From NCBI RefSeq assembly GCF_030384885.1, contig NZ_CP128613.1: a stretch of 64,000 nucleotides of DNA. The stretch is one strand, 5' to 3'. How positions within the stretch are numbered: position 1 is the first letter of the stretch; each line of letters begins with the position of its first letter. Under the pieces are notes generated by a model. That model did not search any database and was not told where the DNA came from. It saw nothing but the letters and a program-made list of their open reading frames with translations. Made by a program: the position numbers and the translations under genes. Shown piece by piece: positions 1-13,790 of the stretch. The DNA is from Escherichia coli. Lineage in GTDB: Bacteria > Pseudomonadota > Gammaproteobacteria > Enterobacterales > Enterobacteriaceae.

Positions 1-2623
1 AAGTAAATGCCCAGTTTTCTTTTGCGGGTGCGCCAGCTTCTGTCCAGGCGGTATACAGATCCCAGCCAAAGTCAGCCAGTGATTCGCGAGTGAAGGTTTC
101 TTTGATGATCTCCAGCCCAGCGTAGGCGGTAATGTCGCGAGGAAAGCTCAGCATAGTGCCCAGGTGGCGCATAGCGTCATCTGGTAGAGGCAGGTTGTTA
201 CTTTTAAGCCGTGGTCTGCGCCATAAGGTGAACTGATAAAAGCCGGGCAGTGGGGCGATTTTTGCGGGATATTCTTCCAGAGGATCGCTATCAAATAATG
301 TTGCCAGCGCAGCTAAAACATCAGGTTGATTATATCCTTGCGCGATTTTCTCAATCGTTTCTCGCTGGTTTAATTTCACTAGCAGGCGGAGCGCCTGGCG
401 GGCATATTCCCGATTTTGGCACGGTTTGCCCAGTGCCAAAGGCAGTAGCCCGGCGGCGGCATGGCGCGGGTTATTTGCCAGCCAATTAACGGCATCCTTG
501 TAAGCCATTTTTTTCTGTAACCGCTGCGCCATTGGTAAGGCTAGTTCACTGGCCCCAATAAAGAGGGTGAATATCCACAGTCGTTGATGATCTCGTTGCA
601 AGCAGGTCATAAACGCAGGAATGGCCGTACTACCAAAAACTGCCAGAATCTCTTTCTCACCTGAATATCGCTCCTCAATGATTATTTGGTTGAGAAATGA
701 AATCGCCTGTTGTCCCGGTAAGTAACAAAGCGCAGATAAATTCCAGCTTTTGTTGGCATTGTTGTGATATTTCGCAAACTCAGCTTTTAGTGCTGGAAAA
801 TCAAAGCGCAACAAGGCATCAACAGCGCTTTGCGGTATGTATTTTTTTTCATGTAAGTCATCTTCGCAATGCAGCCATTCATTAAAACCTAATTGCCAAA
901 GGATTTGTTGTTCTGGTGTAAAAGGAATGAAAGATGTCTCCCAGCTTTCTTTTTCAATTAGTGGTAGGTCGGTAAATAAGGTTTGCTGTGATGCCTGATA
1001 TTTCGCGATTTCACTGAATCTGGATATGTCAGTGTGACTGATTAACTCTGTAATTCCTGGTGTGATATCCGTGACGGCAGGAATGGGAAGCACAGGTAAA
1101 TCAAATACGGGTATTACATTTTTCTTCTTATTTATTATCCACGGTGGAGCGACAAATAGCTGCGGCAACATATCCGCAGTGGCATACTCACATTCTTTAG
1201 CTACTGACTGAGGACGACATTCAGATAAGATGCCTGCCGCTTTAGCATTAACCCAGGGAATGACGTCAGTGACTAACTCTGGCGTGACGGTAATCAGTTT
1301 GACAAGCGCGTTGCGCCACTGTGCATCTTCATGTATTGCCAGCAAAGTAGCATAAGCGGCAATAGCCGCAGCGGGATGTTTTTGGCAGGCTTTGCTTAAG
1401 TATTCCAGGTGCTTTTTCTTGCCATTTACACCGAGGATCAGAATTTGAATCGCATCCGGGTGATTCGTTTTCCATAGCCATTTGACAAGATCTTCAGTCT
1501 CGCTGATGCGCTCGAAGAGATAAGTGGGATTGTCAGAATGCTCTTCCACAAACTCAGTAAGTATCCGGCTTACACCGCGCCCCCCATTATTTGCCAGCAA
1601 CATTGCCAGATAAGCGCGAAAATCACGATACAACGGTGGGAAGTCGTATTTTTCTGCTGTAGTCAGAGCTATATCATCGGTTACTACCAGTCTTAACCAG
1701 GTTATCGCCGGAACGTTTTGGTCTGCATAATGTAGCGCCATAGCATTGGCAATATCCGGGCGTTCAGGGAGCAGTAACGCGGCAAAAGGTTGCCGTGCTG
1801 GGGATAGCGTCGGAATAGCAGTAAGCACTTTATCCACACAGCGTTGCCACTCATCTTCTGAAGCGAGTGAAAGATGATGACATAGACGTTGATGCCAACT
1901 CGGTAGCGATTCTGCTTCGTGATTAGGTGGAATGATGGTGGTTACTGCGCCTTTTACTGGTTTATATTTGAGTTGAAGAGCGAGAAGGGCGATTTCAACG
2001 GCACTTTCCAGACCACAGCGAATGACTAAGTCATCGACCAGTTCATCTTGAGAGTAAGAGTTCCAAAAGCCCCAGAGCAATGCTGCATCAGATTGCGCAC
2101 TCCCTGTCGGTTGATTACCCTGAACTCGCATTTGTAACTCAGCAAAAGCCTGCTGCCAGTTTTCTGGATAAGAGCGGTAATTATTGTCGGGGTCATATGC
2201 CCTGGTGTTATTCGCGATGCGCTTCCATATTTGACCATCTTTGTGCAGATAATTGATATCTCTGGGGCGAGAGCGATGTGGAAAAGCAAATCGGTTAATA
2301 TCGTCGGTTAGCGGAATGACTGCATCATCAGCCAGCCATGGGCGTTTGTTTTTACTCTCGGGTGAAGTTTCAACGTCAGGAGTGACTTTGGTGACGGGGG
2401 GGATATGCACGTTTGCCGAAGCGTCTTCCACATAGCCTTTTTTCGTTTTCTCAGCGATAAGCTTCAGTTCCGCTTTTTCCGCCGCCGCAGCATCCGCAAA
2501 GCTTTTTATCTGGCTTTGCCCTTGGGTGCCAACTTTTCCCCAACTGATATGCAACTCGTTACCTTGCTGCCCCACCGCCCAGAATTTATGCGATTTTTCG
2601 TCCTGGTAGATATAACTCTTCAT
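1..2623 (-). CDS. molR: MolR-like large WGR-domain protein, N-terminal ~874 codons; gene continues past the window edge
   Basis: Manual reverse-complement translation from ATG at 2623 gives MKSYIYQDEKSHKFWAVGQQGNELHISWGKVGTQGQ (WGR-type motif). No complete minus-strand ORF is listed in the track for this frame, consistent with an open frame running to position 1. Position downstream of metG matches K-12 molR. Confidence 0.65.
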   Translation of the reverse strand, partial: MKSYIYQDEKSHKFWAVGQQGNELHISWGKVGTQGQSQIKSFADAAAAEKAELKLIAEKTKKGYVEDASANVHIPPVTKVTPDVETSPESKNKRPWLADDAVIPLTDDINRFAFPHRSRPRDINYLHKDGQIWKRIANNTRAYDPDNNYRSYPENWQQAFAELQMRVQGNQPTGSAQSDAALLWGFWNSYSQDELVDDLVIRCGLESAVEIALLALQLKYKPVKGAVTTIIPPNHEAESLPSWHQRLCHHLSLASEDEWQRCVDKVLTAIPTLSPARQPFAALLLPERPDIANAMALHYADQNVPAITWLRLVVTDDIALTTAEKYDFPPLYRDFRAYLAMLLANNGGRGVSRILTEFVEEHSDNPTYLFERISETEDLVKWLWKTNHPDAIQILILGVNGKKKHLEYLSKACQKHPAAAIAAYATLLAIHEDAQWRNALVKLITVTPELVTDVIPWVNAKAAGILSECRPQSVAKECEYATADMLPQLFVAPPWIINKKKNVIPVFDLPVLPIPAVTDITPGITELISHTDISRFSEIAKYQASQQTLFTDLPLIEKESWETSFIPFTPEQQILWQLGFNEWLHCEDDLHEKKYIPQSAVDALLRFDFPALKAEFAKYHNNANKSWNLSALCYLPGQQAISFLNQIIIEERYSGEKEILAVFGSTAIPAFMTCLQRDHQRLWIFTLFIGASELALPMAQRLQKKMAYKDAVNWLANNPRHAAAGLLPLALGKPCQNREYARQALRLLVKLNQRETIEKIAQGYNQPDVLAALATLFDSDPLEEYPAKIAPLPGFYQFTLWRRPRLKSNNLPLPDDAMRHLGTMLSFPRDITAYAGLEIIKETFTRESLADFGWDLYTAWTEAGAPAKENWAFT

Positions 2624-2763
2624 CCGCGTTCCCTGTATTTATATCCAGTTATAAGCGGATGCTAGCAGTTAATGAAAAAAATTAAGAGCGTTGAACAAAC
2701 AAGAAAACAACTTTAGGAATTCATAAAGAAAAGGCGCTGTCGATGCAGCGCCTTGAAGGGGGA

Positions 2764-13664: not shown

Positions 13665-13790
13665 ACCAAACGACTCGGGGTGCCCTTCTGCGTGAAGGCT
13701 GAGAAATACCCGTATCACCTGATCTGGATAATGCCAGCGTAGGGAAGTCACAGACCACCAGGTCATTGCTTCTTCACGTTATGGCAGGAG
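13665..13790 (+). ncRNA. TPP (thi-box) riboswitch in the thiM 5' leader
   Basis: Leader contains GGGGUGCCCUUCUGCGUGAAGGCUGAGAAAUACCCGUAUCACCUGAUCUGGAUAAUGCCAGCGUAGGGAAGUC immediately upstream of the thiM RBS/ATG; matches the classic thiM aptamer I recall. Confidence 0.88.

Follow-up and report, generated by a model that had tools for sequence, protein, structure and literature searches.

An intact WGR–DUF4132 gene downstream of metG in Escherichia coli is a paralog of K-12 molR in a widespread five-gene operon

MoxR-type ATPases and their VWA-domain partners are known from CbbQ–CbbO, NorQ–NorD, CoxD–CoxE, RavA–ViaA, midasin/Rea1 and the class I Mg and Co chelatases (BchH/BchI/BchD; CobN/CobS/CobT). 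Many MoxR–VWA pairs insert or mature metal centres. Here we describe gene A, which is located at positions 1–2623 on the minus strand of a 64,000-nucleotide stretch of Escherichia coli DNA (RefSeq contig NZ_CP128613.1; this whole stretch is called the window) and belongs to an operon that includes such a pair, yehL and yehP, while its own product is neither member of the pair. The closest described protein in architecture is MolR of E. coli K-12 (UniProt P33345, a conceptual protein; yehF b2115 and yehH b4499). Both proteins have a WGR domain, a helical region, a DUF4132 domain and a length of about 1,264 residues, and their genes share the general locus downstream of metG with a homologous promoter region. 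However, gene A is a paralog of molR that is intact and has no K-12 counterpart, whereas K-12 molR carries two lesions. Public annotation and the literature already cover gene A, the exact protein and the three-gene "DUF4132 region", and the main contribution of the present analysis is a correction of the label, to that of a MolR/YehI paralog.

The minus strand from 2623 to 2 translates into 874 sense codons with zero stops and an N-terminus reading MKSYIYQDEKSHKFW. The probability of 874 stop-free codons in random sequence is (61/64)^874 = 6e-19. The gene starts with the ATG at 2623-2621, and the hexamer AGGGAA is located just 5' of it at 2634-2629. The frame is missing from the list of complete minus-strand open reading frames (ORFs) because it runs off the window edge. 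The original prediction of a frame open for at least 874 codons, from 2623 to the edge, is borne out by this translation, and no in-frame stop or frameshift, named beforehand as refuting it, occurs within 1–2623. The chromosome of E. coli 2020CK-00188 (NZ_ABACVG020000001.1), the source strain, matches the window at 100% identity; the strain was isolated from a human rectal swab in the USA. In that record, 391 further codons complete a coding sequence (CDS) of 3,798 nt and 1,265 amino acids (IUB69_RS03330 / WP_074500745.1), which is annotated as "DUF4132 domain-containing protein" and has no pseudogene flag. Thus 69% of the gene, its 5' part, is inside the window. Our own translation of the full gene contains a single stop, the terminal one, and the remaining 391 codons are free of stops and frameshifts. 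It is practically certain that positions 1-2623 (minus strand) are the 5' two-thirds of an intact protein-coding gene. The parts of gene A in the window are the following, with the linker delimited by a predicted local distance difference test score (pLDDT) below 50:

1..2623, minus strand: 5' part of gene A, 874 codons (69%) of a WGR, helical-repeat and DUF4132 gene of 1,265 codons (WP_074500745.1)
2414..2623, minus strand: WGR domain, aa 1-70, predicted as four β-strands followed by a helix; motif SWGKVGTQGQ
2360..2410, minus strand: probable flexible linker joining the WGR domain to the helical body, aa 72-88; pLDDT <50
2..2359, minus strand: almost all-helical HEAT/ARM-like repeat scaffold, aa 89-874, in the predicted model

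Gene A is the promoter-proximal copy of three tandem paralogs. In the source strain, the array follows metG on one strand and is composed of A (1,265 aa), a 12-nt gap, B (1,264 aa), a 9-nt gap, and C (1,214 aa). Gene B is an intact WGR and DUF4132 gene wholly outside the window (2020CK-00188 stretch L001 10019-13813), and gene C is the yehI ortholog. The array is followed on its 3' side by yehK, yehL (AAA+), yehM (DUF5682), yehP (VWA) and yehQ (SWIM). The metG–yehK interval of K-12 MG1655 has two slots only, the first taken by yehF (274 aa, WGR) together with the yehH pseudogene (the old "molR"), and the second by yehI. The K-12 molR region is 93.5% identical to B in nucleotide sequence over 3,796 nt and 92.5-93.3% identical in amino acid sequence. 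Its amino acid identity to A is 38% in the N-terminal 962 residues and 57% in the C-terminal 305. Genes A and B share 43.5% of amino acids. YehI (b2118) has the conserved C-terminal core and the DUF4132 domain in common with gene A, but has no WGR domain and only 32% identity to it. Since the genes flanking the array are themselves only 95-97% identical between the source strain and K-12 (metG 97.1%), 93.5% corresponds to ortholog-level divergence for a somewhat faster-evolving cluster. From these identities, K-12 molR is therefore the ortholog of B, and K-12 lacks gene A.

Naming gene A "molR" after the K-12 nomenclature, as the original prediction did, thus mis-assigns its orthology, since the K-12 molR pseudogene corresponds to the next gene, B. 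Gene A is not the paralog with the highest identity to MolR in its own genome, and it is separated from yehI by B. The prediction was right that K-12 molR is a split pseudogene, now annotated as the yehF CDS and the yehH pseudogene. Relative to B, its lesions are TTA>TGA at codon 275, which makes the end of "yehF", and an additional G (+1) at codon 949, at K-12 coordinate 2,199,319. The system was also said to be broken in K-12, where yehI, yehK, yehL, yehM, yehP and yehQ are in fact all intact. As for an intact copy serving as a marker of a functional system, gene A is indeed intact, but this does not set it apart, as thousands of intact alleles of 1,265-1,275 aa exist across Escherichia and the exact protein is in RefSeq. 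A hybrid junction between A and B was sought as a sign that unequal recombination gave rise to the K-12 arrangement, and no clear breakpoint was present in the first 400 nt.

The gene A protein has a computed mass of 143 kDa and a pI of 5.6, and is predicted to be soluble, with no hydrophobic or transmembrane segment. The anticipated WGR-type N-terminus is confirmed by a Pfam WGR match (PF05406) to aa 8-69, at 65.3 bits against a gathering cut-off of 22 (E 5.5e-18). The Pfam DUF4132 domain (PF13569) matches aa 999-1182 of the full-length protein at 175 bits against a cut-off of 27; it is located outside the window and was read in the source record. AlphaFold2 (AF2) models were made as monomers from family alignments, in two overlapping pieces. 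The model of aa 1-874 (pLDDT 86.9) comprises the four-strand and helix WGR domain, a disordered linker at aa 72-88, and an almost entirely helical body. The model of aa 640-1265 (pLDDT 94.1) continues the helical repeats to about aa 960 and ends with an α/β module, in which a four-strand meander and a helix form the terminus. The predicted WGR domain superposes on those of PARP1 and PARP3, and the remaining body matches helical-repeat proteins in structure searches. The closest described WGR domains are those of PARP1/2/3 and of the bacterial protein Q64V53_BACFR (PDB 2ra8). In gene A the WGR domain has no PARP catalytic or helical regulatory domain after it, and the product is therefore no ADP-ribosyltransferase. 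Sequence searches of the PDB with A returned WGR matches only, and the only NCBIfam match, of the WGR region to a Leptospira family, scored far under the cut-off of that family. Seven C-terminal segments had no Pfam match even at E = 10. A local Foldseek match of the C-terminal α/β module to YugN (2r5x_B) had a probability of 1.00 and a template modelling score of 0.55 (normalized to the target), but an E-value of 0.057.

The family of DUF4132 proteins, called D proteins below, has 8,864 representatives of 50%-identity clusters (E <= 1e-3). The conserved core of the family corresponds to aa 650-1265 of gene A, and the variable part to aa 100-650. A WGR domain is present in 113 of the best 150 representatives. 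The longer members differ by extra helical sequence, and Pfam scans of 12 unusually long ones revealed a single informative fusion, to a HAMP-HisKA-HATPase_c kinase. The kinase domains of this protein are N-terminal (metagenome contig ERZ25070695, L011 6883-12213), and its gene is preceded by an OmpR-type response regulator gene and followed by a MoxR gene. This arrangement hints at a signalling role of D proteins in some lineages.

The operon to which gene A belongs is widely conserved, and in its E. coli form gene A is an additional, accessory D copy. We denote the operon D-L-M-P-Q, in which D is the DUF4132 protein, L a MoxR AAA_5 ATPase (YehL), M a DUF5682 protein (YehM), P a VWA_CoxE protein (YehP), and Q a SWIM zinc-finger protein (YehQ). 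A survey of one genome per species, scanned for conserved C-terminal motifs of D, gave 71 loci from Beta-, Gamma- and Deltaproteobacteria/Myxococcota, Actinomycetota and Acidobacteriota. Partners were searched for within 10 kb in the 54 loci of at least 15 kb, using phmmer with the E. coli proteins against six-frame ORFs. Homologs of YehL and YehM are present in 46 of these 54 loci, of YehP in 43, and of YehQ in 41. In 26 loci the genes have the dominant order D-L-M-P-Q, tightly packed on the same strand; variants are L-M-P-Q-D, D-D(-D)-L-M-P-Q, L-D-M-P-Q and L-M-D-D-P-Q. Massilia aquatica, M. frigida and M. rubra (L033, L035, L041) have tandem arrays of at least seven D genes, compared with three in E. 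coli. No YehK homolog was found outside Escherichia in the surveyed loci. Gene A is co-located with yehL, yehM, yehP and yehQ on the same strand of the source strain. The original prediction had placed MoxR-like AAA+ and vWA genes beside proteins of this family and a yeh cluster beyond the window; the survey agrees with the former across several phyla, and the extended record shows yehL and yehP past the edge. In Escherichia and in a relative with the same synteny (L007), the cluster has a fixed chromosomal site, with metG on one side and yehR/btsSR on the other; practically every E. coli has the cluster at least in part.

YehL is a MoxR-type ATPase of the AAA_5 family with the Walker A motif GEPGTAKS. 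Among solved structures, those nearest to it in sequence are AAA domains of midasin (E ~1e-9) and a MoxR protein, and in NCBIfam it has weak matches to GvpN, MadB and McrB. YehP is a VWA protein of the CoxE type with an intact metal ion-dependent adhesion site (MIDAS) motif, DQSGS, and has a weak hit to a model of a cobaltochelatase subunit. Sequence searches of the PDB with YehM and YehQ gave no solved relatives. In comparison with the characterized MoxR–VWA pairs, the operon has three extra conserved components, namely the D, DUF5682 and SWIM proteins. The class I chelatases have a similar three-part logic of a ~140-kDa subunit, an AAA+ ATPase and a VWA protein; however, no sequence or fold relation of D proteins to BchH or CobN was detected, and the likeness is one of analogy only.

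The D proteins probably function together with YehLMPQ. Drawing on the established MoxR–VWA systems, we propose that the YehL–YehP ATPase–MIDAS pair acts as a mechanical remodelling motor, for which D proteins would be interchangeable scaffold, client or adaptor subunits. The MIDAS of YehP would grip an acidic ligand, borne either by the conserved C-terminal core of D or by something that D holds, and YehL would spend ATP to remodel or release it. The conserved core of D would be the part common to the machine, the variable N-terminal half of the solenoid may provide paralog-specific recognition, and the WGR domain may serve as a tether or gate through a nucleic-acid ligand. We hold this specific adaptor or client role only tentatively, as somewhat less probable than its opposite. 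Taken as a whole, identity and mechanism together, the explanation is on balance the best one, and we lean slightly towards it.

Several observations weigh against this explanation. The arginine of the W-G-R motif in PARP WGR domains is a lysine in gene A, and DNA-end binding can be suggested for gene A by analogy only. Structure searches with the α/β DUF4132 module gave no informative relative. Literature searches (DUF4132, DUF5682, yehL/M/P/Q, WGR and polymorphic toxins) found no functional study of DUF4132/D proteins or YehLMPQ; the relevant papers were those on a transposon site in ST131, on BglJ-RcsB promoters and on zor-orz. Some D genes stand alone. One (L006 10001-13753, JGI 3300060289) directly follows an Rhs/YD-repeat gene in a VgrG/PAAR/DcrB (type VI secretion system) island and precedes SUFU- and SMI1_KNR4-family (immunity-type) genes, with MoxR and VWA genes absent within 10 kb. 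Another (L009) is located between a ParA/Mrp-like gene and a DinG-like helicase gene. Strain NMBU-W10C18 keeps A and B intact despite a deletion from yehI into yehM, so that D proteins may act independently of the motor, or the deletion may merely be recent.

The promoter of the A-B-C array is probably located in the region between metG and gene A, where the following elements were identified by sequence:

2624..2763, minus strand: metG–gene A intergenic region, homologous to the K-12 metG–yehF ("molR") promoter region
2731..2754, minus strand: strong intrinsic terminator of metG, predicted 9-bp stem with 6 GC pairs and a T-rich tail; separates metG from the gene array
2714..2721, minus strand: putative BglJ-RcsB box, AATTCCTA, matching the central motif wwTTCykA; the octamer is identical in K-12
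2659..2664, minus strand: TAGCAT, a -10-like hexamer common to K-12, ~55 nt downstream of the box

Of the 64 nt directly 3' of the metG stop, 63 match K-12, and the remainder of the region is diverged but alignable. The K-12 molR promoter has been mapped experimentally and is activated by BglJ-RcsB, which recognizes boxes with the central motif wwTTCykA at a distance of 65-68 bp from the box centre to the transcription start (PMC3950696). The position of TAGCAT, a hexamer missed by a consensus promoter scan, fits this published distance. The K-12 "molR" promoter thus appears to be conserved upstream of gene A and to drive A-B-C, and transcription of the array is probably activated by BglJ-RcsB, as in K-12.

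Gene A is present at a coverage of at least 80% in 1,629 of 5,426 complete E. coli genomes (~30%), and gene B in 4,010. The alleles of A are 88-94% identical to the window allele in nucleotide sequence, and in only two genomes does the identity reach at least 99%. The best 120 protein clusters for A are all from Escherichia (E. coli, E. fergusonii, E. marmotae and cryptic clades); nearly every one is full-length, with 1,260-1,276 aa and 84-100% identity, and several hold hundreds to ~1,800 member sequences. The closest non-identical clusters (95% aa; e.g. P0002) are labelled Escherichia fergusonii, and most E. coli alleles are at 84-93%. Exchange of gene A alleles between E. coli and E. fergusonii is possible. 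A candidate insertion of ~1.4 kb in gene A of the closest relatives (H2-H6), which appeared as a match in two pieces spanning 5,384 nt, was rejected, as the annotation of H2 has an intact 3,798-nt gene and the second piece is a joined match to paralog B.

Damage to the cluster was found in several of the sampled strains:

Strain 147 (O157-like): internal stop in A, frameshift in B, internal stop in yehM
NMBU-W10C18: A and B intact; deletion from yehI into yehM, with truncated yehI fused to truncated yehM (L083 16104-19796) and yehK and yehL gone
SW070912: B split
TB06053: B shortened
AVS0528: yehK frameshifted

Insertion sequences IS5, IS1203 and IS903B are found in the cluster, and A itself is interrupted by IS5 or IS1203 in some strains. 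In sublineage L1a of ST131, a blaCTX-M-15 transposon is inserted in the "DUF4132 region" (PMC9334617). Gene A is intact in four other sampled strains, and no sampled cluster gene is flagged as a pseudogene in the source strain or in 2013C-4282.

The ratio of nonsynonymous to synonymous substitution rates (dN/dS) of gene A is 0.18-0.23 at dS 0.17-0.39 in four allele comparisons. The ratio is 0.19-0.31 for B and C compared with other alleles, 0.01-0.03 for metG and ~0 for apbC. A ratio of about 0.2 means that gene A is a constrained, though relaxed, coding gene, and does not support gene-wide positive selection. In codons ~500-700 (window ~520-1120, minus strand), dS is saturated (2.35, 1.18) relative to AVS0528, the most divergent allele, and is 0.1-0.5 elsewhere; this segment therefore has a mosaic or recombinant ancestry. 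Amino acid diversity among 115 Escherichia alleles peaks at residues ~300-400, 500-750 and 1200-1250, and residues 750-1150 are conserved.

This variability bears on a different reading of the operon, as a conflict system directed against phages, plasmids or competing bacteria, in which the tandem, diverging D paralogs would act as decoys or sensors, and damaged or foreign nucleic acid would be the target recognized by the WGR domain. The copy number of D ranges from one to at least seven in the Massilia arrays, A is polymorphic in presence and its alleles within Escherichia share 84-95% of amino acids, part of A is mosaic, and the cluster decays frequently through stops, frameshifts, deletions, insertion sequences and a transposon. 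The Rhs/VgrG/PAAR island with its adjoining immunity-family genes and a type I toxin-antitoxin locus lying within the cluster of E. coli point the same way. However, a PADLOC-DB v2 scan of A, B, C, YehK, YehL, YehM and YehP matched 0 families at E <= 0.01, the D proteins and their long family members contain no nuclease, protease, TIR or other effector domain, the chromosomal site is fixed, with at least part of the cluster in essentially all E. coli, and dN/dS of ~0.2 leaves gene A without gene-wide positive selection. We consider a conflict role unlikely. We likewise doubt, but note, a broader possibility: that D-L-M-P-Q is a widespread five-component midasin-like machine whose tandem, rapidly diversifying WGR–solenoid–DUF4132 paralogs, as exchangeable specificity subunits, couple a nucleic-acid or protein signal to ATP-driven remodelling. 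Such a machine might represent a new class of conflict or stress system that senses nucleic acids, dependent on BglJ-RcsB, silent in K-12 under laboratory conditions and partly decayed there.

The toxin-antitoxin locus was described as a zor-orz type I locus between yehI and yehL in most E. coli, MG1655 not included (Fozo et al., PMC2887945). In the source strain, the yehK-yehL gap (L001 5504-5593, plus strand, outside the window) contains a 29-aa hydrophobic ORF, MDTLTQKLTVLIAVLELLVALLRLIDLLK, which is consistent with a single copy of a zor-orz type locus.

A role of the D proteins and the YehLMPQ motor in metal-cofactor handling, for instance of molybdate or in molybdoenzyme maturation, would parallel the Mg and Co chelatases, CoxD–CoxE and NorQ–NorD. 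Annotations still use the historical name molR, "molybdate metabolism regulator", and the metal-centre work of established MoxR–VWA pairs, the weak cobaltochelatase match of YehP and the subunit composition mirroring CobN/S/T and BchH/I/D are in keeping with it. Anecdotally, neighbouring genes include apbC/mrp (Fe-S carrier) and rcnAB (Ni/Co), and the ParA/Mrp-like gene of L009 is directly upstream of the D gene. The domain content argues otherwise: in D proteins Pfam finds only WGR and DUF4132, with no CobN/BchH-type domain, and the helix-turn-helix and Mop domains of a ModE-type regulator were not found in gene A with Pfam or NCBIfam. Moreover, D is unrelated in sequence to the large chelatase subunits, no metalloenzyme gene is linked to it consistently in the surveyed loci, and K-12, which has no A and a broken B, has normal molybdoenzyme biology. 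A metal-related role is quite improbable.

A reading of gene A as a selfish or degenerating duplicate that does nothing itself, and whose frame is open here only through an accident of recent history, is highly improbable. Its absence from ~70% of complete E. coli genomes, its internal stop in the O157-like strain and its interruption by IS5 or IS1203 elsewhere would be expected of such a gene. The dN/dS values at the dS observed, however, indicate long-term purifying selection, intact alleles of 1,265-1,275 aa persist in E. coli, E. fergusonii, E. marmotae and the cryptic clades as well as in the four other sampled strains, and the AF2 fold is confident; the decaying-duplicate reading is disfavoured. 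That gene A is the intact functional ortholog of the fragmented K-12 molR, the working version of a system broken in K-12, is suggested by the shared family and WGR–DUF4132 architecture, the position directly after metG behind the homologous promoter region and database entries calling some alleles "molybdate metabolism regulator" (protein cluster P0080), but is already refuted by the identities of K-12 yehF/yehH to B rather than A, and opposed by the intactness of B itself and of yehI and yehK-yehQ in K-12.

Elsewhere in the window, a thiamine pyrophosphate (TPP) riboswitch is annotated at ~13666-13762 (plus strand; L001 28666-28762) upstream of thiMD; it is ordinary and unrelated to gene A.

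The locus of metG, the three DUF4132 genes and the yeh genes is highly polymorphic in E. coli. Because it is also a known site of the blaCTX-M-15 transposon in ST131 (PMC9334617), correct naming of the paralogs matters for comparative and epidemiological genomics. For the study of the cluster, strains such as 2020CK-00188 or 2013C-4282, whose sampled components are all free of pseudogene flags, would offer a better start than K-12. Gene A belongs to a large, phylogenetically wide and tightly linked five-gene module with a midasin-like ATPase–MIDAS motor.

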